DNA of 32,000 nucleotides, taken from positions 11,519 to 43,518 of the forward strand of contig PRDJ01000063.1 of assembly GCA_003345555.1 (NCBI GenBank), given 5' to 3'. This DNA is from Candidatus Thorarchaeota archaeon. GTDB taxonomy: Archaea; Asgardarchaeota; Thorarchaeia; Thorarchaeales; Thorarchaeaceae. Positions 3,526-19,708 of this stretch are shown piece after piece. A program made the position numbers and the translations under genes. The notes below the pieces were generated by a model that was not told the origin of the DNA, made no database searches, and was given only the letters and a program-made list of their open reading frames with translations. Numbering within the stretch: the first letter of the stretch is position 1; each line of letters starts with the position of its first letter.

Positions 3526-5190
3526 CTAGTCAATATCTCCTGACTGCGCTACCTTTGCCGTAAGAGTCGCATTCTCTTCCAAGGCGTCTACGAGGGCGCT
3601 TCCCTGTCTTGTCTTAATCCGTATTGATGCCTCTCCATTTCGACCGGTTACCGTTGTGAGAAGGTACTGGTCGTTAGCAAAGATGTCTAATCGCATCTTC
3701 ACGTACTTCTTGCCAGCATACACCGTGACTTTCTTGTGCGAGTAGCTTACCGAAATTGGGACGCTTTCTCCCGGTGTCCCCCGTTCGAAGGTCTCTCGGC
3801 GTTCCCCCATAACAGGTCGGGTCTCACCGTGAACGGGAACCACGACTTTCTCTCCACCGAAAGTGAATATCTCGTATTCAAGCACTCCGCGCTCAAAGTC
3901 ACGTACCTCAATGACAGGTCTCGCTAAGTCTCTTTGTGAGCTGCTCATTCCAGTTGGGAGCTTGACCTTTAAGGAGAGGGCAGCAACTTTCGCAACACGC
4001 CCTGCCTCTATATGTAAGACAGTATCCACAGTGCTTGGCAGCTGGCCCAATTCAACTCGGCCACCGAGTATCAACCGCTGTATGGCATCAATGGCAGAGC
4101 CGGCATGCACTACTCCTACCATGCCGACACCTGCAGATCTCAGGTCGGAATACACCTGAAAGTCAGAGTTCTTTCGTAATTCGTCGTATACAACATAGTC
4201 TGGCCGTACCAGCAGTAGGATGTCTGCGGTCTTCTCCATGCTTCGATCAAGCGGAGCATACTGAACGATATCATCAGTTACTTGAAGGTCTCGAGGTTGC
4301 TCCAATGTCTTGACAACATTTCCCTTCTTACTATAGAACTCTGCAAGTGCAGCTGCAAACGTACTCTTTCCGGATCCGGGCGAGCCCGAAATGAGAATGC
4401 CTTCGGCACGGCTTTCTAGCCTGTTCATGAGTTTCGGGCTAAGGCCATAGTAATCGATGTCGAGCTTCGTGATGGGACGAATCGCTGAGATTTCCATCTT
4501 GTCACTAAAAGGTGGACGCGCGATGGCGATACGGTAGTTTCTGAGTTGAACGACTGTCGCACCGAATTCCTCGATTTCTATGAATGAGGCTCTGTCCTGC
4601 CGTGCTCTCTCGAGTATTGTATTGGCTAGCTGATCCAGTTCCTCAAAAGCGAGAACATGGTCTGACAGGTCCACCAATTCCCAATCTCCGGGTTCTCCTC
4701 TCTTTGCCCGGGGAGGATTGTTCTCCACGAGATGGACACTCATGGTACGTTCATCGAAGAACTCCTCTAGGGTGACAATAGAATCGGGGCGTTTCTTTGC
4801 AATTACAGTCACCTCGAGTCCCATGATACGACCCGCCGCCGCTTGGACACTGTCAGATGTCACTAGCGTCGCGCCAAGCTTTGATGCAGTATCACGAACC
4901 AAAGCATCCAATTCGCCCCTGTCTGCATCATGGACTTGGGCAATAGATGGTCTCTCGCCGGTGAATTCCAGCACGATGATACCGTTATCGGCGAGAGATC
5001 TGAGTCGTTCAAGTTCATTGAGGCCTAGCTTTCCTACGTCCCTCTTCTGATTCGCCATGTGCTCGATTTCTGCCAGTACAACGTTCGGGACGACTATTCG
5101 AAATCCTCTGTAGTCCCCGGATTCCACTTGGTGCGATACCCACCCGTCTATTACTACGCTAGTGTCAAGCACAATGACATTGTTCGTCAT
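3526..5190 (-). CDS. PIN-domain / VirB11-like ATPase (PINA family)
   Basis: N-terminal PIN acidic residues (LDTSVV, AEIEH, GELDAL, VTSD), Walker A GSPGSGKST, Walker B VYDELR and GMVGVVHAGSAIDAIQR. Starts at ATG 5190 or GTG 5193, overlapping the upstream stop codon. Confidence 0.92.
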   Translation of the reverse strand: MTNNVIVLDTSVVIDGWVSHQVESGDYRGFRIVVPNVVLAEIEHMANQKRDVGKLGLNELERLRSLADNGIIVLEFTGERPSIAQVHDADRGELDALVRDTASKLGATLVTSDSVQAAAGRIMGLEVTVIAKKRPDSIVTLEEFFDERTMSVHLVENNPPRAKRGEPGDWELVDLSDHVLAFEELDQLANTILERARQDRASFIEIEEFGATVVQLRNYRIAIARPPFSDKMEISAIRPITKLDIDYYGLSPKLMNRLESRAEGILISGSPGSGKSTFAAALAEFYSKKGNVVKTLEQPRDLQVTDDIVQYAPLDRSMEKTADILLLVRPDYVVYDELRKNSDFQVYSDLRSAGVGMVGVVHAGSAIDAIQRLILGGRVELGQLPSTVDTVLHIEAGRVAKVAALSLKVKLPTGMSSSQRDLARPVIEVRDFERGVLEYEIFTFGGEKVVVPVHGETRPVMGERRETFERGTPGESVPISVSYSHKKVTVYAGKKYVKMRLDIFANDQYLLTTVTGRNGEASIRIKTRQGSALVDALEENATLTAKVAQSGDID

Positions 5191-5825
5191 CACTGTTCAC
5201 CGGCCCGATTTCGTAAAGTCGCACGTGATACCTTATAGAAGTTCACTTCCCCGTTCTGGTCCACGAGGGCAAATACAAGCTTCTTACGTGCAGCAGAGGC
5301 TGCTTCAGTGACCATGTCCAAGTCTTGAAGCGATATCGGTTCTCCTTCTTTGAGGACATACACAAGCTGGCTGGCGGTTGCCGCACTGGGCCTGTCTCCT
5401 CTTGCATAAACCCTGAATCCGATTCCTCCACCGAAACCCTGACGCACTGCGTATCCCCTGCTTCTGAGGTCTCTGAATACCAGATAGCGGGTCCAGAGAT
5501 CAGGATCTCCTTTCATAAGTTCATCCACTATCTGCCTTGCTTCAATCTGCTCTCCGGTAAGTGACCTTGTGAGGATCCTTTTCCTTTCAAGAAGATGAAG
5601 CATTTCGACAGGGTCGAGCTGCAGTCTGCCGTCATCTAGACGGGTTCCGTAGAAACCATCCTGTGATATCCTATCAGCCTCGGCACCAGAAACGTAGCCG
5701 TACCTATCGTAGAATATGGCTTCCGCTGGTTCCTCCTGAAGCTCTGTCAGCTCTTCTGCAATTTTCTCGTCATCAGGATTTCCTGTTTCCTCTGACTCTG
5801 GGTTCTCGCCATCTTTATCGGGCAA
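5190..5825 (-). CDS. tRNA-splicing endonuclease, probable structural (beta-type, non-catalytic) subunit
   Basis: EndA fold motifs (LQLDPVEMLHLLE, YLVFRDLRSRGY.VR.GFG....FRVY, ARKKLVFALVD), but the catalytic Tyr (KYG) and His positions are absent. Probable TTG start at 5825; the ORF is open from 5888. Confidence 0.85.
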   Translation of the reverse strand: MPDKDGENPESEETGNPDDEKIAEELTELQEEPAEAIFYDRYGYVSGAEADRISQDGFYGTRLDDGRLQLDPVEMLHLLERKRILTRSLTGEQIEARQIVDELMKGDPDLWTRYLVFRDLRSRGYAVRQGFGGGIGFRVYARGDRPSAATASQLVYVLKEGEPISLQDLDMVTEAASAARKKLVFALVDQNGEVNFYKVSRATLRNRAGEQ

Positions 5826-5925
5826 CCAGTCTCGCCTGATAGAGCAGGACCTCAGCCGATTCGAGAAAAACCCTTCGTCGAGGTACATTGCGAGAATCTA
5901 GGCAAGTATTTGGACCAGTGAGCCT

Positions 5926-8700: not shown

Positions 8701-8778
8701 TGGCGGGCACGGTCGGATTTGAACCGACGACATCCAACTCCGAAGGCTGGTGCCTTGTCCAAGCTAGACTACGTGCCC
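8701..8778 (-). tRNA. tRNA-Arg(UCG), no intron, CCA encoded
   Basis: GGGCACG/CGTGCCC acceptor, CCAGC/GTTGG stem, CT-TCG-GA loop, GTCGG-TTCAAAT-CCGAC T arm; 78 nt. Confidence 0.97.
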
Positions 8779-10001: not shown

Positions 10002-10031
10002 TACTGATATGTTCACTCGAACATATCAGTA
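10002..10031. promoter_or_regulatory. Perfect 13-bp palindrome with 4-nt spacer, candidate operator/hairpin upstream of the ECF operon
   Basis: TACTGATATGTTC-actc-GAACATATCAGTA ends 22 nt before ATG 10054, with no U-tract on either side. The sequence is certain; the function is inferred. Confidence 0.6.
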
Positions 10032-10053
10032 GGCTCACATGGAGACTCCTTGA

Positions 10054-11601
10054 ATGAATCGTGGAGCAGCTGTACTTGTGCTCTCGTTGGTACTAGTGGC
10101 CGCAGGCCTCGCAGTGGGTCTGTTTGTCTTTCAACCCATAAGAGAATCTCCAGCAATCTCGGTCCAAGGGGGATACCTAGTTGGTACGTCAAGTGATACT
10201 GCATTGGTTCGGGCTATGAGCCTAAGTCTAGACATCACGCTGCTTTGGGAATCTCAGTCAGGAGTCGGCTTGTTCAGAATCAATGTGACCAACATAGATA
10301 CCGAGAGAATGATTGCAGAATCGGATGCACAGGTCACCGTTGTTGCAGTCGGGTATAGCTCCAAGACTTTCGAAGTACGTACGACCGCACTGAAGGCCGA
10401 GCTCAGTCTACGGCATACGTCCTCAGATTCCATTCGATTCTATGTCTTCGGCGATTCACAAGGCTATCAAGGCGGAATGCAGCAAATCGTATTATCTGCG
10501 AACGAGAACAGACCAGACTTTCTGTTCCACTGCGGAGACCTTACGCCCTTCGGTCAGGAGAACCAGTACGTTAGTTTCACGCAGGCTCTTCATAATCTGA
10601 CAATACCTTTGTTCGCTACCACTGGAAATCACGACGTACGCAAGGGGGGCGACTTGCGATACCTTCAACACTTTGGTCCTTCCAGTTATTCGTTTGATTT
10701 TGGCGCTGCACACTTTACAGTTCTCGATACTTCCAGTGGCAATGTTTCGGAGGCGGCCTATAGTTGGCTAGCTAACGATATCATCGGATCTTCTGCAGAA
10801 TGGAAGATTGTATTCACTCACATTCCCCCGTTTGATCCACGCCCCGGAGGAAACCATACGTTAGGTAATACCACTACAGCCGAACGGTTGATGAATCTGT
10901 TCAAGACTTCGGGTGTAAACATAGTGTTTGCCGGCCACATTCATGTATTCAATGAAACCATCTTCGGTGGTGTGCATTATGTAATCACAGGGGGCGCCGG
11001 CGCGACCGTATCTCCGAGTTCACAAGGAGGAACGTACCACTATGTCAACGTCACATTACAAGGGTCAAATCTCCTGATGAATGTCATACCGTTGAGTCCT
11101 CCAATTCTGGCCGTTGGCACAATTACAATTCGAGGGGTTTTAGATAGTATGACGGTCTCGCTTGAGGATTTGGGAACACTCACAACTATCGTGGGTTCAT
11201 CGTCATTCCAGAATCAGTATGGCAACTGGGGCGGACTAGGCGAATACAGAGGAGTCCGAGTATCAGACTTGGTCGACATGGTTGGTGGAATGACAACGAA
11301 TGAATTACTGTCCGTGTCAGCGTTCGATGGTTACCAACGACTGTACTCCTACTGGAATGTCTATCCCAATGATTCTTGGCATTCACTGCAGGGCGACATG
11401 ATACTCGCATATGAGTTCAACGAGACATTGGGCCCAACTTGGCAAGACGGTCCGAGGATCGCAATGCTCGCACCCGACGGCGCTTACAGCAACGATGACT
11501 GTTTGGCTACTTCGGCTCCGGGGCTAGGCTTCTACTATTACCCGTCTGCGGGCGCGCTCTGGGTTAGGTGCGTAGTACTTATTGAGGTGAATCACGAGTG
11601 A
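10054..11601 (+). CDS. Secreted/membrane-anchored calcineurin-like metallophosphoesterase with C-terminal molybdopterin-oxidoreductase-like domain
   Basis: N-terminal signal anchor; MPE motifs GDSQ, HCGDLT, TGNHD, FTHIPP and AGHIH; C-terminal domain (~11116..11601) with Y.GV...L, SAFDGY, MILAYE.N, GPRI and WVR.V..IEV. Confidence 0.85.
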   Translation: MNRGAAVLVLSLVLVAAGLAVGLFVFQPIRESPAISVQGGYLVGTSSDTALVRAMSLSLDITLLWESQSGVGLFRINVTNIDTERMIAESDAQVTVVAVGYSSKTFEVRTTALKAELSLRHTSSDSIRFYVFGDSQGYQGGMQQIVLSANENRPDFLFHCGDLTPFGQENQYVSFTQALHNLTIPLFATTGNHDVRKGGDLRYLQHFGPSSYSFDFGAAHFTVLDTSSGNVSEAAYSWLANDIIGSSAEWKIVFTHIPPFDPRPGGNHTLGNTTTAERLMNLFKTSGVNIVFAGHIHVFNETIFGGVHYVITGGAGATVSPSSQGGTYHYVNVTLQGSNLLMNVIPLSPPILAVGTITIRGVLDSMTVSLEDLGTLTTIVGSSSFQNQYGNWGGLGEYRGVRVSDLVDMVGGMTTNELLSVSAFDGYQRLYSYWNVYPNDSWHSLQGDMILAYEFNETLGPTWQDGPRIAMLAPDGAYSNDDCLATSAPGLGFYYYPSAGALWVRCVVLIEVNHE

Positions 11602-12662
11602 GTCTTGACCGTTCAACGGCACAAATGACCCGTGAAATCGTAACGGTCGCTGTTCTGGCCTCCCTCGGTGGCGCTCTAAGCACCTTTGTAGGCTATCTAG
11701 GTAATCTCATAAATGCCGGCCTGGGTGTGCCATTTGGAGCAGGCCAGTTCATGGCTGGTCTCCATGTCTTCTGGATTGTGCTGATCAGACTATTGGTGCC
11801 GAAGAGGGGGGTCGGAACCGCAGGAGGTCTTCTGAAGGGCTTCGTTGAGTTCCTGACAGGCAGCACACACGGAATTGTCGTTGTGTTGGTATCCGTCATT
11901 CAGGGCGCTATTGTGGATCTGGGTGCTACCTTGGGGGGAAGACCATCCCCCGCAGGACCCGGGGCGAAGCTCGTGTGGTGGCTTTCAGCCGGTGTCTCTT
12001 CTGCTTCCAACGTGTTAGCGCTCCAATTCCTCTACTTCTCAGGCGCACCTGCAATCTACCTCTTCCTAATCGCAGTCCTCGCTTTCTGCTCTGGAATCAT
12101 CTTTGGCGGCTATTTCGCATGGGAAACAATGCAGTTCCTATATGACGCAAGAGTCATAGTTCCCGTCTCTGAAGCGGCGGTGCCAGTTCTCTCATCTAAG
12201 CGGAGGATAAGGATTCGAAATCTCCCGGCCATAGTACTGATTCTTTTCCTAATTGTCGGCTCATCCTTCTATCTTGCGTTTGTGATGAAGGCTTTGTCAG
12301 ACCCGTACTCTTGCGAAGTTACGGGGCTCGTCACAAATCCGTATACTTTCACATACTCAGCATTTGCTGGTGAGCAGGTTACAATTGTGGCCGAACTCAA
12401 GGGCGCGTATATCTCTCTCCCTCCCGCGAATTACACTGGGGTTCTTCTGAGTGTAATTCTGGCGAATGCAAGTCCGCAGTCAGGAGCTTCCATGTTGAGC
12501 GTGAGCGCACGGGATGGCTACGTTGTAGATTTCGGCCTGGATGGCGTTCTCGCTGATGGCCATTTACTGCTGACAAGAGCTGACGATGGTCTCTGGCTTA
12601 TTGCCGGAAACTATGCCGGTTCGATGTGGGTAAAACAGGTCACTACTCTCAGAGTGTACTAG
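11598..12662 (+). CDS. ECF transporter S component (YkoE/ABC_cobalt-like) fused to an extra TM and a molybdopterin-oxidoreductase-like domain
   Basis: Six hydrophobic helices with GQFMAGLH.FW, K.G.G...GL..G.VE...G and SVIQGAIVDLG; then a seventh TM and a soluble domain with YTGVLL, SARDGY...F.L and WVKQV..LRV. Confidence 0.82.
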   Translation: MSLDRSTAQMTREIVTVAVLASLGGALSTFVGYLGNLINAGLGVPFGAGQFMAGLHVFWIVLIRLLVPKRGVGTAGGLLKGFVEFLTGSTHGIVVVLVSVIQGAIVDLGATLGGRPSPAGPGAKLVWWLSAGVSSASNVLALQFLYFSGAPAIYLFLIAVLAFCSGIIFGGYFAWETMQFLYDARVIVPVSEAAVPVLSSKRRIRIRNLPAIVLILFLIVGSSFYLAFVMKALSDPYSCEVTGLVTNPYTFTYSAFAGEQVTIVAELKGAYISLPPANYTGVLLSVILANASPQSGASMLSVSARDGYVVDFGLDGVLADGHLLLTRADDGLWLIAGNYAGSMWVKQVTTLRVY

Positions 12663-12674
12663 GCGAGAACCACT

Positions 12675-14129
12675 ATGCTTGAAGCGCGTCACGTCACTTT
12701 CTCCTATGATGGAATACAACCTGTACTTCGTTCCATAGACCTGACGCTTCAACGAGGGGAGACTCTACTAATCACGGGCCCAACCGGTTCGGGAAAGTCG
12801 ACTCTGGCCAAGTTCCTCTGTGGATTCATACCACGAATCGTCCGTGGCGAATGTTCCGGTGTACTGTCCATCGACGGTGACGACGCCGATTCTCTTACAC
12901 TAACCGAAATTGCGCGGAAAGTATCTCTCGTACAGCAGGATCCCGAGAGCCAGATTTGTACCCTTACGGTAAGTGACGAGGTAGCATTCGGACCAGAGAA
13001 CTACCTGATTAAACCCGAAGTTATGACCCGCCTAGTTGACTCGTCGTTGGCATCTATCGGATCATCTCATCTTGCTGGTCGTTTGACTTATGCATTGTCC
13101 GGTGGAGAGAAACAGCGGGTTGTGATAGCTTCAATGCTTGCGTGCCAACCTGACTATCTGATTCTAGATGAACCCTCGTCGAGTCTAGATCAGAAAGGCA
13201 TTCTCCAGCTCGGACAGATATTGAGTGAGCTGAAGAAAAAGAACTTGGGTGTCATATGCATTGAACATCATCTTGAGCCATTCCTGCCGTCGGCAGACCG
13301 TGTTCTATCATTATCTGAGGGCAGACTGTTTCCTTGGGCCCAAGACGTTGGCCGGAGGGGCGGCCCATTCCAAAATCATTCTGTTCTGCCAATCGAGACC
13401 GATGCCCTCGCTTCAATGAAGAATGTCAGTTTTGCCTATGCAGACAGGCCTGTGATTCGGAGAGTCACAATGGCAATTCATCGTGGAGAGGTCATTGCAC
13501 TGATGGGAGACAACGGCTCCGGGAAGACGACACTTCTTTGTTTGTTGGACGGACTGCTCAATCCCTTGGAGGGCGAGATCTGCTTGGGCGCTAATTCGGT
13601 CAAGAGGCTGTCAAAGAAAGACATAGCAAAGAAAGTCGCAATGGTATTTCAGAATCCGAACAATCAGATATTCGAGCGGACTGTCTCAAGGGAGCAACTT
13701 CTTACTTTGGACGTTCTGGGACTCAAAGAGAGTCGTTTGACCGAAAACAGCGGCGCGCGTCTCGATGAGGCTGGTCTTGCAGAATTCAAGGACAGAAACC
13801 CGTTCGCGTTAAGTCACGGTCAGAAACGTCGGCTCAATGTGTGCTCAGCTGTTGTTCATGATCCCGACTTGTACCTGTTTGATGAGCCCTTCATTGGGCA
13901 GGATGAGCGTGGCCAAAGATTCATCACAAATACGATAGCCGAAAGGGCCCGAACAGGCGGGGCCTGCGTCGTGGCAACTCACGATCTCCCCTTTGCGGCA
14001 GAGTATTGCAGCCGACTAGTTTTCCTAGAAAATGGCTCGTTGCTTTTCGATGGCCGCCCCGAATCAGTCTTTCACAGGCTCGAACAAACCGGGCGGCCGG
14101 AATACAGTCTTGGCAAGGTGGCGTCCTAA
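12675..14129 (+). CDS. ECF transporter duplicated ATPase (A-A' fusion)
   Basis: Two ABC cassettes: GPTGSGKST/LSGGEKQR/ILDEP and GDNGSGKTT/LSHGQKRR/LFDEP, with ECF-type Q-loops QDPESQ and QNPNNQ. Confidence 0.95.
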   Translation: MLEARHVTFSYDGIQPVLRSIDLTLQRGETLLITGPTGSGKSTLAKFLCGFIPRIVRGECSGVLSIDGDDADSLTLTEIARKVSLVQQDPESQICTLTVSDEVAFGPENYLIKPEVMTRLVDSSLASIGSSHLAGRLTYALSGGEKQRVVIASMLACQPDYLILDEPSSSLDQKGILQLGQILSELKKKNLGVICIEHHLEPFLPSADRVLSLSEGRLFPWAQDVGRRGGPFQNHSVLPIETDALASMKNVSFAYADRPVIRRVTMAIHRGEVIALMGDNGSGKTTLLCLLDGLLNPLEGEICLGANSVKRLSKKDIAKKVAMVFQNPNNQIFERTVSREQLLTLDVLGLKESRLTENSGARLDEAGLAEFKDRNPFALSHGQKRRLNVCSAVVHDPDLYLFDEPFIGQDERGQRFITNTIAERARTGGACVVATHDLPFAAEYCSRLVFLENGSLLFDGRPESVFHRLEQTGRPEYSLGKVAS

Positions 14130-14948
14130 TTGACTTCACGGACTGGATTCATAGATAGGAATACGATACTCCACCGTCTGAATCCCGCGATGAAGCTTTG
14201 CGCACTGGTATCCATAGCGGTTGCTACCATAGTCTATCCGAGTTGGCGACTAAGTGCAATTGTACTTCTGTCTATCTTGGTATGTTTCAGACTCTCACAC
14301 GTTCCCCTCCGGTTGACGAAAGGCCGGATGAAGTTCATTCTAACATTCGCGGCGCTGATGTTGTTGCTACAGATTATCGTAATAGAGAATGGCTCGATTC
14401 TCTTCTATCTGCTCCCTCAAATCGGCAGCTTGGGCCCCTTCTTTCCGGTGACCGATTTCGGCATCGAACGAGGCCTAGATATAGTGGTCAGGTTTCTCTT
14501 GATTATATTCTCCAGCATACTCTTTGTCTCGATCACTGACCCCACGCTGCTTGCCTATTCTCTGGTCCGGATTGGAATCCCCTACAGGTATGCTTTCTCA
14601 CTTGTATTAGCGCTCAGATTCCTGCCGCTATTTGATTCCGAGAACAATATCGTTCGCATGGCTCAGCAGTCCAGAGGTATTTCCCTTGAGGTCGGCAGCA
14701 TTCACAAGATACTCAGAAGCGTAAGGTACACATTCTTTCCTCTGCTCGTATCCGCCCTGTCGAGGGTTGACAGCCTTTCCCTTTCAATGACTGGTAGAGG
14801 ATTTGGCTATAGTGATAAGAGAACGTACCTGCGCATCACACATTGGTCTCCAAGCGACTGGGCGATTCTCGCCATCTCGGTCATCTTCACAATCTTCTGC
14901 TTCATACTGGCACTCGGTTTGCTTCCTCAGGTCTCTCGGTTCCTTTGA
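14130..14948 (+). CDS. ecfT: ECF transporter T component (EcfT/CbiQ family)
   Basis: LHRLNPAMK start, LALRFLP and AQQSRG motifs, second Arg motif SMTGRGFG. TTG start abuts the ATPase stop. Confidence 0.93.
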   Translation: MTSRTGFIDRNTILHRLNPAMKLCALVSIAVATIVYPSWRLSAIVLLSILVCFRLSHVPLRLTKGRMKFILTFAALMLLLQIIVIENGSILFYLLPQIGSLGPFFPVTDFGIERGLDIVVRFLLIIFSSILFVSITDPTLLAYSLVRIGIPYRYAFSLVLALRFLPLFDSENNIVRMAQQSRGISLEVGSIHKILRSVRYTFFPLLVSALSRVDSLSLSMTGRGFGYSDKRTYLRITHWSPSDWAILAISVIFTIFCFILALGLLPQVSRFL

Positions 14949-17119
14949 GATCGAGTGTGCGGAATGCGTGTCTCCACAGCAGTGCTGATTGAGTGAAGAG
15001 CATCCTCTGGAGTAACTCTGTTTCCATTCCGAAACACATTGGGATAGTACATGGAGTAGCACTGCAGGCATTTTCCAAGTGTCATTACTTGAACTTCAAG
15101 CGGAGTCGGTTTCTCTCCTCTTGTCTTGAGCACGGCCACCACCTCTTTCGATGCCTTGTCGATAGACCTTCTCACCGAGGCCCAGGATCTGGAGCGCCCT
15201 TGCAGCTCTCTCCTCCGACATACAAGAACAACATCATACTTGATGCTGTTGGTTAGGCGTAAGTGAGTTGAGGACTCCATCTCGCTTCTAACCGGGTAGG
15301 CCGCACTTATGGCAAAACCAGAATACAGCACTGCTTGAAGCACAGAGACCCACTCATTTAGGCTTCTATGATGAAATGTAAACACAAGGATACCGTCCGG
15401 TTTCAGTACTCGGTTCGCTTCGGCAAAGATACCCGTGAGTCCCCGAAGGAACTCTTTCTCTCCTTTTTGCTGGACACTGTTAGAGATTACCTCCTCCTCC
15501 CATGGAACTGTTTCACTGTCGAACCACGAGTACTTGGTTCTTAGGCCCAATCGTAACCAGACATAGAAGAAATTCGATAGCTCCGAATACATCACGTTCC
15601 CTGCATATGGGGGGTCGGTGACGACAGCATCGATGACTGCATCCGGAATATCAATATGGTCCGAGGAACCGCAGATCAACATTGCCTGTTTTGTTTTGCG
15701 AAAATCCTTGTAATGCAACGCTAATTGGCCACTAATCGGCGTGGTGAAGTGTACTGCTCTTATCTCAGTACCTTCAACTACTCTCTCAAACGGTGCTATA
15801 CAGTAGTCTTTTGCCTCCATCACGAGTCTGACAAAGGCCGTGAAAGGTCCTCGCCCTTTTGCAGTATCATAGCAATTACCCTCCACTGGCGTCATTGAAG
15901 GCGAGTATGAGTGAGTTCTGAAGATGTCAGTTATGAAGCCCCTTGTTCCGTTGTACTTACATAGCATGTTATTATACTTCAGGCAATTCGAGAAAGCAAG
16001 GACAAGAAACTCCTTCAGATTCCAGTCTTCGATACTCAATATCCATCTGTATATCTTCCCGAGGTTCAGTAGCTGTCTAGCATTGAATAAGTCCCTGAAT
16101 TTCACGTATCCGTGGTTCAGGACGCGTCTAGTCTCCACCCCTTGCGGAATCGCTACGTCTGGGATGGGTAGATACTGTACTTCACTTTCGTACTCGCTTT
16201 CTGCTTTCTTCAGAAGCTCGTAGTCAGCACTATCGGGCGCCTTGTAGCCTCTGCCGTGCATCAATCTGGGGTTATTGTTTTGATCACATGCATGACAGTA
16301 GAATTCGATGGCATACATTCGCTCTCTAGGTCGGCCCTGCTGTCTTATCGCGCGCGTAATCTGTGCAGGTTTGCATGTTGGTCTAAGGCAGAAGAACTGT
16401 TGTCCTGAAGTAAACGATGTTGCTTTTGCGCAGAATTCAGCCCCACATTTCGGGCAAGTGCTCGGTTGTGCTGCATTGAGGGTTTCGAAAATGCCCCAGC
16501 AGTTTGGGCAGACCACTACATCCCCTCTTCCTGTAGGGGCTTTGGCCAAGAAGAAGTCCCGCATCAGCGGAACCGTGGTGCCGCATTCAGGACACTTCAG
16601 CTCCTTACGATGAAAGTAGTAAATCGCTTCTGCACTGCCACTACACTCAGGACACACGGTTTTGTAGTACCTGCGGAGTTCGACTCCAAGCTCGCTCTCA
16701 AGCTTCGAGAGACAGTCTCTGAGAGAAGCCGAGTCAATATGCTCAATCTCTTTTTTCACCACAAACCAAGAGACCGGATTCAGGTCTCCTCCAATGACCT
16801 TGCACCCAAGCCTGAGTGCCTCAACGATTGTGGTACCCCCGCCCATCATCGGGTCGAGGACGACCTTTCCGTTCAGCTGAGTGTCACGGGAATAGAAGGC
16901 CCATAGGTTGTTGGGGTCCTGATCCCATTGTGCCAATCCTCGGTCAGCCAGAGAATATAGAAGTATGGCACGAAAGACAGAACCAAGTCTTCGTGCCCAC
17001 CATTTGTGCATCAGATACACAGGACGATAATGCCGTCTTCCAAAGCCGGTCGACTCCTTCTCCGCAATCTTGTTGATTTCAGCAATTGGAAAGAAGTCTT
17101 CAATCGGTCTGGACGACAC
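14927..17119 (-). CDS. Adenine-specific DNA methyltransferase with Zn-ribbons (DUF1156/COG1743-like)
   Basis: N-terminal LMHKWWARR, motif I DPMMGGGT, motif IV TDPPY, VFTFHH, and multiple CxxC pairs (CPEC x2, CPNC, CPKC, CHAC). Confidence 0.92.
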   Translation of the reverse strand: MSSRPIEDFFPIAEINKIAEKESTGFGRRHYRPVYLMHKWWARRLGSVFRAILLYSLADRGLAQWDQDPNNLWAFYSRDTQLNGKVVLDPMMGGGTTIVEALRLGCKVIGGDLNPVSWFVVKKEIEHIDSASLRDCLSKLESELGVELRRYYKTVCPECSGSAEAIYYFHRKELKCPECGTTVPLMRDFFLAKAPTGRGDVVVCPNCWGIFETLNAAQPSTCPKCGAEFCAKATSFTSGQQFFCLRPTCKPAQITRAIRQQGRPRERMYAIEFYCHACDQNNNPRLMHGRGYKAPDSADYELLKKAESEYESEVQYLPIPDVAIPQGVETRRVLNHGYVKFRDLFNARQLLNLGKIYRWILSIEDWNLKEFLVLAFSNCLKYNNMLCKYNGTRGFITDIFRTHSYSPSMTPVEGNCYDTAKGRGPFTAFVRLVMEAKDYCIAPFERVVEGTEIRAVHFTTPISGQLALHYKDFRKTKQAMLICGSSDHIDIPDAVIDAVVTDPPYAGNVMYSELSNFFYVWLRLGLRTKYSWFDSETVPWEEEVISNSVQQKGEKEFLRGLTGIFAEANRVLKPDGILVFTFHHRSLNEWVSVLQAVLYSGFAISAAYPVRSEMESSTHLRLTNSIKYDVVLVCRRRELQGRSRSWASVRRSIDKASKEVVAVLKTRGEKPTPLEVQVMTLGKCLQCYSMYYPNVFRNGNRVTPEDALHSISTAVETRIPHTRSQRNRET

Positions 17120-19630: not shown

Positions 19631-19708
19631 TGGCGCCCCCGCCGGGATTTGAACCCGGGTTAGACGAGTGACAGTCGCCTATGCTAGACCGGACTACACT
19701 ACAGGGGC
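19631..19708 (-). tRNA. tRNA-Asp(GUC), no intron, CCA encoded
   Basis: GCCCCTG/CGGGGGC acceptor, GGCGA/TCGTC stem, CT-GTC-AC loop, CCGGG-TTCAAAT-CCCGG T arm. Confidence 0.97.

Follow-up and report, generated by a model that had tools for sequence, protein, structure and literature searches.

In group I energy-coupling factor (ECF) transporters the S, A, A' and T components are encoded together, and ECF transporters in general are defined by the absence of binding proteins. The group includes the thiamine transporter YkoEDC of Bacillus subtilis, whose S component YkoE (5EDL) binds thiamine through five residues: Glu77 and Gln95 hydrogen-bond the pyrimidine ring, Trp49 stacks, and Tyr46 and Asp131 are the thiazole ligands (PMC5037267). 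Pterins are bound by proteins of the sulfite-oxidase (SUOX) fold, among them the PF00174 enzymes sulfite oxidase and YedY (MsrP), which bind the molybdenum cofactor (Moco), and PruR (7kos, 7kom, 7rkb), found in the periplasm of Agrobacterium and other Proteobacteria, which has neither a Mo-ligand Cys nor catalytic activity, takes free pterins as ligands and acts by docking to a membrane protein (PMC11194511). Here, we describe a four-gene operon that brings the two together, located in a 32,000-nucleotide (nt) stretch of DNA from a Candidatus Thorarchaeota archaeon (contig PRDJ01000063.1, positions 11,519 to 43,518; hereafter the window): a YkoEDC-like ECF transporter in which the S component, and a phosphoesterase encoded next to it, each end in a Cys-less SUOX-fold domain.

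We propose that this operon encodes an ECF importer of the dedicated, YkoEDC-type group I that takes up a molybdopterin-type cofactor by way of capture domains on the cell surface, a reading to which we assign a probability of about 0.6. We infer both the exact cargo, which would be the molybdenum/tungsten (Mo/W) pyranopterin cofactor or a close derivative, and the role of the phosphoesterase from the comparisons below.

A group I ECF operon with two Cys-less sulfite-oxidase-fold domains

The four coupled open reading frames (ORFs) encode the metallophosphoesterase P0001, the YkoE-like S component P0002, the fused A-A' ATPase P0003 and the T component P0004 (Table 1), joined in that order by a 4-nt overlap, a 12-nt gap and a 0-nt gap. 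An earlier note, made from the sequence alone, had claimed this gene set and spacing, and ORF coordinates and family matches bear it out on both counts. PF09819, TIGR04520/TIGR04521 and PF02361 are found in coupled genes, as in group I, and a PF09819 S component, a fused A-A' and a CbiQ-type T in one operon are also what YkoEDC has. The S core adopts the YkoE fold, superposing on 5edl with a TM-score of 0.74 (Foldseek E 8.6e-6). Relative to YkoEDC, the extra elements are a seventh helix, a pterin-fold domain of the S component that is predicted to face outward, and a same-fold surface partner; this outward domain and the surface protein always encoded nearby make the system depart from the textbook ECF type, which has no extracytoplasmic binding protein.

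We refer to the C-terminal domain of P0002 (residues 235-354) as A1 and to that of P0001 (residues 345-515) as A2. Both are SUOX-fold, Moco-binding-fold domains without the Mo-ligand Cys. AlphaFold2 (AF2) gave a pLDDT of 91.6 for the A2 domain and 80.6 for the S component; Foldseek matched A2 to sulfite oxidase/dehydrogenase (E ~2e-6) and to PruR (7kom, TM-score 0.80), and A1 to SorA (E 2.4e-6) as well as YedY and PruR. Compared by hhalign with genuine Asgard PF00174 enzymes, the A1 profile scored 98.2% (E 4.5e-14, 118 columns) and the A2 profile 97.0% (E 8e-11, 135 columns), and the A1 profile also matches SoxC (2xts) at E 2.9e-4. The two domains resemble one another too, both by direct BLASTP (12/32 identities, E 0.004) and profile against profile (89.5% probability over 44 columns). 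A sequence search of the PDB with P0002 returned no match and the A2 profile reached only E 1.6 against SorA, so structure prediction and local enzyme profiles were required to assign the fold. Both domains likewise stay under the Pfam gathering score of PF00174 (22.7 and 14.3 bits, the cut-off being 24), which some of their relatives pass.

In A2 the position of the Mo-ligand Cys is taken by Asn387, invariant in 120/120 relatives and lying inside the conserved motif SSFQNQYGNW. In A1 an H-C-V tripeptide is deleted at this site, leaving AEL---KG; the invariant Cys239 of P0002 sits at the N-terminal edge of the domain, away from the ligand position. The DGY motif and a C-terminal Trp, which line the pterin site of PF00174 enzymes, are conserved in A1, A2 and the enzymes alike, and DGY, Trp and Asn would be the equivalents of the pterin-binding residues of PruR, where conserved Tyr and Trp sandwich the pterin ring and an Asn hydrogen-bonds it. 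No part of A2 is as conserved as the former active-site motif, which argues for ligand binding rather than a scaffold role. The view of the earlier note that the two C-terminal domains are Cys-less members of the molybdopterin-oxidoreductase fold is thus upheld by Foldseek and by profile comparison with PF00174.

Like PruR, A1 and A2 are small SUOX-fold domains that have no Mo-ligand Cys and are predicted to lie outside the cytoplasm. They differ from it in several respects: the Cys position is occupied by Trp within a Pro-Trp motif in PruR but by Asn or a deletion here; PruR signals to the DcpA cyclase, whereas the neighbours here are ECF transporter parts and include no DcpA-type partner; and PruR is bacterial and free-standing, whereas A1 and A2 are archaeal and fused or membrane-anchored. 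Unlike PF00174 enzymes, they have neither redox partner domains nor a twin-arginine translocation (Tat) signal, and since they would lie outside after a plain anchor, loading with cofactor in the cytoplasm is unlikely.

Both domains are predicted to face outward. P0001 starts with a signal anchor followed by glycosylation sequons (Table 1). In P0002, Lys and Arg are confined to the N-terminus and the even loops, and helix six is followed by KRRIRIR, the seventh helix and then A1, which contains an invariant N278-Y-T sequon; as the C-terminal helix of YkoE has been described as facing the cytosol, the seventh helix would place A1 on the outside. The extracytoplasmic location put forward in the earlier note therefore holds as a prediction of topology from charge, anchor and sequons.

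In the profile alignment to 5edl, Glu77 and Gln95 of YkoE correspond to the invariant E84 and Q102 of P0002, while Trp49 corresponds to His56, Tyr46 to Ala53 and Asp131 to Gln143, an alignment that is weak (E 1e-3) and in which single positions may be shifted. Of the thiamine-binding set, P0002 therefore keeps the pyrimidine-binding Glu and Gln, with the thiazole-binding residues and the stacking Trp replaced; the thiamine pyrophosphate (TPP) riboswitch is another feature in which the operon differs from YkoEDC, having none.

Related domains also occur away from the operon. P0245, an unlinked 493-aa anchored surface protein of the same genome (G000:C52:14542-16101, minus strand, corresponding to L038:4040-5521, minus strand), has two clear A2-type domains, a possible third and 19 N-glycosylation sequons, and most system-carrying genomes have a second A2 locus of this kind. 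Among metagenomic proteins, P0367 (1556 aa) and P0322, P0324, P0340 and P0341 (~600 aa) contain 4 to 10 matched A1-type stretches, which suggests large arrays of the pterin fold at the surface.

Mutual exclusion with the Moco pathway

We surveyed 400 Asgard genomes, labelling families f and genera g and taking the fused S component (S core plus A1) as the system. It is present in 81 of them (49 in f1, 1 in f7, 14 in f11 and 17 in f14), and the system and the Moco pathway exclude each other. None of the 81 carriers has MoaC, and the system is found in 0/34 of the MoaC-bearing genomes of the same four families. The split is repeated inside six genera (g6, g9, g11, g12, g36 and g41) belonging to three families; in the two largest of these the hypergeometric chance of zero overlap is 1e-4 and 6e-4, figures that ignore relatedness within the genus. 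MoeA follows the same pattern, with 32 carriers of MoeA and 49 of the system in f1 and a single overlap.

Two other pathways served as a comparison. ThiC was found in none of the searched f1, f7, f11 and f14 genomes, with or without the system (0/85 in f1, 0/22 in f11, 0/19 in f14). GTP cyclohydrolase IB, which opens the synthesis of non-Moco pterins and is a single marker of it, occurs in 39/49 system carriers and 20/30 MoaC carriers. Exclusion with the Moco genes, and none with ThiC or GTP cyclohydrolase IB, indicates that among the pathways tested the system substitutes for the Moco pathway; as a further difference from YkoEDC, its distribution follows loss of Moco synthesis and not loss of the thiamine pathway. 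The earlier note had offered either molybdo-/tungstopterin or phosphates of thiamine or hydroxymethylpyrimidine (HMP) as cargo. The exclusion favours the former, and the latter loses ground because ThiC is missing whatever the state of the system.

The genome of the window (G000; 2.28 Mb, 93.5% complete, with the window on its contig C63) gave no match to the MoaA C-domain, MoaC, MoaE or MoeA. A closed genome of the same family that has no copy of the system, G320, carries a seven-gene block (L033:2672-9064) encoding, in order, a Tup-like binding protein, a permease, a TOBE ATPase, MoaA, a MoaE-MoaC fusion, MoaB and MoeA. Searching G000 by tblastn with the tup-moaA-moaEC-moaB-moeA proteins of this block returned nothing specific, and no Tup-like binding protein or permease was found. 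G000 has ten genes for aldehyde ferredoxin oxidoreductases (AORs) and one Cys-bearing PF00174 gene. From this gene content, the host appears unable to make Moco and would need the cofactor for about ten tungsten-pterin AORs and one sulfite-oxidase-family enzyme. AOR is present in 86/86 f1, 19/19 f14 and 21/22 f11 genomes, and in f11 an AOR gene is located a few kb upstream on the same strand, by coordinates within ~4-8 kb of the operon in at least four genomes. In the f11 genome G072, the importer operon is directly preceded on the same strand by genes for an AOR and a ZIP metal transporter and by two uncharacterised genes (L017:13011-14801, minus strand, and neighbours).

Two further loci of G000 were considered. 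A 510-aa fusion of an HD phosphohydrolase domain and the molybdopterin (MPT)-binding domain MoCF_biosynth (G000:C27:7482-9011, minus strand, corresponding to L036:983-2512, minus strand) takes the form of two adjacent genes or contains in-frame stops in many relatives; as a system-specific cofactor handler it was rejected, being found in genomes with and without the system. The other is an ATP-binding cassette (ABC) importer on contig C31 (L037:1090-5758, minus strand) with a 680-aa fused double permease, whose halves are weakly ModB/WtpB-like, and a weak SBP_bac_11 binding protein. All its matches (PhnS2/PhnU2, ModB/WtpB, ThiQ-like) fall below curated cut-offs, and its cargo could be thiamine, iron or an oxyanion.

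A conserved pair of pterin-fold domains and an optional phosphoesterase

The ECF gene order is the same in 8/8 system loci examined, while the partner of the S fusion varies with the lineage. In f1 the A2-type domain lies ~1.1 kb upstream of the S fusion on the same strand, at the end of a protein made of anchor, N-module, phosphoesterase and A2 and encoded ahead of S, A-A' and T. In f14 and f11 the partner is an anchored or lipoprotein-like double-A2 protein without phosphoesterase; f7 has both a 207-aa single-A2 protein upstream and a phosphoesterase-A2 protein after T; and a distant metagenomic operon encodes a 162-aa pterin-fold protein, a 459-aa S fusion, a stand-alone phosphoesterase, A-A' and T. 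Across these layouts a second pterin-fold domain is the partner that stays constant. An A2-type surface domain and A1 on the S component form a conserved pair, and the phosphoesterase is recurrent, as a fusion or a neighbouring gene, but optional. Co-occurrence of the genes in other genomes, which the earlier note had asked of its model, is thus confirmed in four Asgard families for the transporter and the pterin-fold domains. Dephosphorylation as a constant step had to be given up, as the f14 and f11 operons have the double pterin-fold protein instead.

Homologues are named Thorarchaeota, Lokiarchaeota or Promethearchaeota, which places the organism among the Asgard archaea. A search of 1.8 billion representatives gave ~30 clusters of full-length S fusions, besides a class of 450 aa, forms that are split, and tandem arrays with as many as 10 matched stretches; among the clusters of distant relatives, one is named Kariarchaeaceae. 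Weak A1 matches (E 1e-6 to 1e-11) in f22, f4 and others were rejected as distant systems, being true PF00174 enzymes fused to DUF4079/cytochrome b561-like domains. On one metagenomic contig (L041:5904-11942) three to four tandem paralogous S fusions accompany a 187-aa pterin-fold protein and a single T component. In f8, eight genomes of genus g28 have weak A2-profile matches (E 1e-13 to 1e-16), no MoaC and no S fusion, and could harbour a version of the system that has diverged further.

The catalytic domain of P0001 has as its nearest solved relatives the GpdQ-type phosphohydrolase and purple acid phosphatases. It contains the full PF00149 motif set (D, GD, GNH(D/E), H, GHxH), with a motif I, GDSQG, resembling that of purple acid phosphatase, and its metal-binding residues D134, D162, N192-H193-D194, H256, H295 and H297 are retained in 119-120/120 relatives. 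With its metal ligands conserved, the enzyme should be active. The preceding residues 31-125 gave no Pfam match; the separate phosphoesterase of the distant operon has a weak match to Pur_ac_phosph_N.

Genomic context of the operon

A perfect palindrome lies between the upstream gene and the start codon of P0001 (Table 1). Its core, ACTGATATG...CATATCAGT, also precedes the orthologous operon of a second genus (L025), with a degenerate version ahead of that of a third (L026), and the copy here is the sole perfect one in the 2.28-Mb genome. The element fits the site of a dedicated repressor or activator and is a candidate operator. A search of sequencing runs listed DNA runs from wetland metagenomes, some perhaps of the source sample, and no RNA run. 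An Rfam scan of the window detected no riboswitch, only three tRNA genes, all on the minus strand (120-228, 8704-8778 and 19634-19708). The first spans 109 nt, which makes an intron probable, and a tRNA-splicing endonuclease gene is located at 5190-5888 (minus strand). Downstream, a gene for a 730-aa DNA methylase (N6_N4_Mtase + DUF1156; 14927-17119, minus strand) is convergent with the T gene, their 3' ends overlapping by 22 nt.

Table 1. Operon, genes, protein domains and candidate operator, in window coordinates
Feature	Position	Strand	Evidence and remarks
Candidate operator, perfect 13+13 nt palindrome with 4-nt spacer	10002..10031	.	Read directly from sequence
Operon, four coupled ORFs	10054-14948	+	
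P0001 metallophosphoesterase, 515 aa	10054-11601	+	Metallophos PF00149, E 9.5e-18
P0001 N-terminal signal anchor, aa 1-30	10054..10143	+	Hydrophobic segment; nine N-x-S/T sequons after the anchor
P0001 variable N-terminal module, aa 31-125	10144..10428	+	In ~515-aa relatives, not in ~425-aa relatives
P0001 metallophosphoesterase catalytic domain, aa 127-340	10432..11073	+	PF00149, E 9.5e-18
P0001 A2-type pterin-fold domain, aa 345-515	11086..11598	+	Sulfite-oxidase fold; AF2, Foldseek, hhalign
P0002 YkoE-like ECF S component, 354 aa	11598-12662	+	ABC_cobalt/YkoE PF09819, E 4.8e-15, 56.2 bits (cut-off 25.2)
P0002 S core, aa 1-200, YkoE-like, six helices	11598..12197	+	PF09819; Foldseek 5edl (YkoE)
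P0002 basic linker KRRIRIR (aa 201-207) and seventh transmembrane helix to ~aa 233	12198..12296	+	AF2 helix 201-234; positive-inside rule
P0002 A1-type pterin-fold domain, aa 235-354	12300..12659	+	Sulfite-oxidase fold, Cys-bearing tripeptide deleted
P0003 fused ECF A-A' ATPase (YkoD-like), 484 aa	12675-14129	+	ECF_ATPase_1/ECF_ATPase_2 (TIGR04520/TIGR04521), E ~1e-96 each; two ABC_tran domains
P0004 ECF T component (YkoC/CbiQ-like), 272 aa	14130-14948	+	CbiQ PF02361, E 1.5e-29

Discussion

In the importer that we propose, the catalytically dead cofactor-fold surface domains would capture the pterin cofactor, the metallophosphoesterase, where one is attached, would trim it, and the cargo would be handed to A1, tethered above the S component by the seventh helix. 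The S core, which retains the Glu/Gln pair that in YkoE hydrogen-bonds the aminopyrimidine ring of thiamine, would then bind it, and the A-A'/T module would power import with ATP. As a speculation, the phosphoesterase may cleave the pyrophosphate of the dinucleotide forms molybdopterin guanine dinucleotide (MGD) and molybdopterin cytosine dinucleotide (MCD) down to the MPT form. With MoaE, MoaB and MoeA unmatched in the host, import would have to supply the cofactor already loaded with metal, or a compound very similar to that.

Several points weigh against an importer of this cofactor. Free Moco is chemically labile, yet it is the metal-loaded form that would be imported. AOR needs a bis-pterin cofactor, for whose assembly out of imported units we have no explanation. 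If the phosphoesterase acted as a phosphomonoesterase, the product would be a dephospho form, and we know of no enzyme that re-phosphorylates it; the f14 and f11 operons, for their part, lack the phosphoesterase. The S core belongs to a thiamine/HMP family and is named so in databases. The phylogenetic profile is correlative and drawn from genomes that are related to one another, many being incomplete metagenome-assembled genomes; G353 has both the system and MoeA, with both loci at contig ends; outside the four families, MoaC and the system are both missing from most of f8, f13 and f21 and from half of f22; and the HD + MoCF_biosynth protein kept by G000 means that its MPT-binding modules are not all gone. 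Finally, the Cys loop of A1 is short, and in PruR a shortened loop goes with a pocket too short for full Moco (PMC11194511).

The S core by itself would point to a thiamine or HMP importer like that of B. subtilis, with the phosphoesterase making thiamine from TPP or thiamine monophosphate (TMP) on the outside and the extra domains binding pyrimidine or serving another purpose. It belongs to PF09819, its best solved match is YkoE, whose pyrimidine ligands Glu77 and Gln95 map to E84 and Q102, and several homologues are named thiamin/HMP permease by the Joint Genome Institute (JGI); G000 in turn has no ThiC, no ThiD above cut-off and no second PF09819 gene. We nonetheless hold this to be quite improbable. 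ThiC is missing also from the 34 system-less genomes with MoaC, so thiamine need does not predict the system, and HMP would be useless to a cell missing ThiD. The stacking Trp49 and the thiazole ligands Tyr46 and Asp131 have given way to His, Ala and Gln, the C31 ABC system with its ThiP/FbpB/PhnU2-type fused double permease could serve thiamine, and the presence of two Moco-fold domains, like the exclusion with the moa cluster, would go unexplained. Import of a different pterin or of some other metabolite with a pyrimidine ring (for instance folate, a methanopterin precursor, a neopterin-type compound or a 7-deazaguanine precursor), which the Cys-less domains would bind as PruR binds monapterin, would account for the structural match to PruR (7kom, TM-score 0.80), which binds small non-Moco pterins (PMC11194511), for the A1 Cys loop, shortened as in PruR, and for a Glu/Gln pair suited to an amino-oxo-pyrimidine ring. 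We regard it as unlikely, given that the rates of GTP cyclohydrolase IB, the single marker used for such pathways, are similar in the two groups of genomes, that the exclusion is specific to MoaC and MoeA, and that the Pro-Trp hallmark of PruR is not present at the Cys position.

Two other explanations do away with a pterin cargo. The SUOX-fold domains might serve anchoring, oligomerisation or sensing for the uptake of an unrelated micronutrient, with the moa exclusion arising from shared ancestry or general auxotrophy. The tested genomes are mutually related, and the fold does occur in tandem on surface proteins (two to three copies in P0245, 10 matched stretches in one metagenomic protein); yet the exclusion is repeated inside six genera of three families, two control pathways show none, and conservation within A2 peaks at the former active-site motif, which makes this quite improbable in our view as well. 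Uptake of tungstate or molybdate itself, in place of the Tup-type ABC transporter of the moa cluster of relatives, would fit the fact that in G320 the tungstate/molybdate-type ABC genes share a block with the moa genes and that the whole block is without a tblastn match in G000. It is very improbable: an oxyanion would be useless without a pterin pathway, which was not found, YkoE-type S components bind organic vitamins, and the SUOX fold binds pterin, not free oxyanion. Taken together, import of a molybdopterin-type cofactor is the reading that we prefer.

A cofactor importer of this kind would have few counterparts. Caenorhabditis elegans lives on dietary Moco by means of an unknown transporter (PMC7849362, PMC9793310). 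The importer proposed here would make the same use of mature cofactor from other organisms, with the difference that C. elegans is an animal. To our knowledge, no prokaryotic equivalent has been described, and we know of no transporter for Moco or its precursors in any organism. Vitamin routes in which a surface enzyme of metallophosphoesterase type dephosphorylates a nucleotide-linked cofactor ahead of its import are known from Haemophilus (NadN/e(P4), acting with PnuC) and Shewanella (UshA, acting on flavins). In those routes the enzyme carries no fused domain that binds cargo and that the transporter has as well, and the esterase of the present system is optional. In the literature we found no paper linking ECF transporters with molybdopterin and none reporting Moco auxotrophy in Asgard archaea. 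The earlier note knew of no characterised system with this architecture, and we too found no paper describing it. A bolder claim, for which we would not quite offer even odds, is that the operon represents the first system by which a prokaryote takes up the mature Mo/W pyranopterin cofactor, as well as the first ECF transporter working with extracytoplasmic receptor domains, letting whole Asgard lineages drop the Moco pathway together with, as it seems, the linked tungstate transporter, while running about ten tungstoenzymes on cofactor from neighbours or necromass.

If the proposal is correct, ECF transporters can recruit surface receptor domains, and Cys-less domains such as A1 and A2 could become reagents to capture and stabilise a labile cofactor. 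Cross-feeding of Moco and tungsten cofactor in anoxic sediments would become testable through a defined importer. The importer would also explain how many Thorarchaeota-like Asgard archaea combine large AOR families with the absence of a cofactor pathway, and it may bear on the resistance of Asgard archaea to isolated cultivation.

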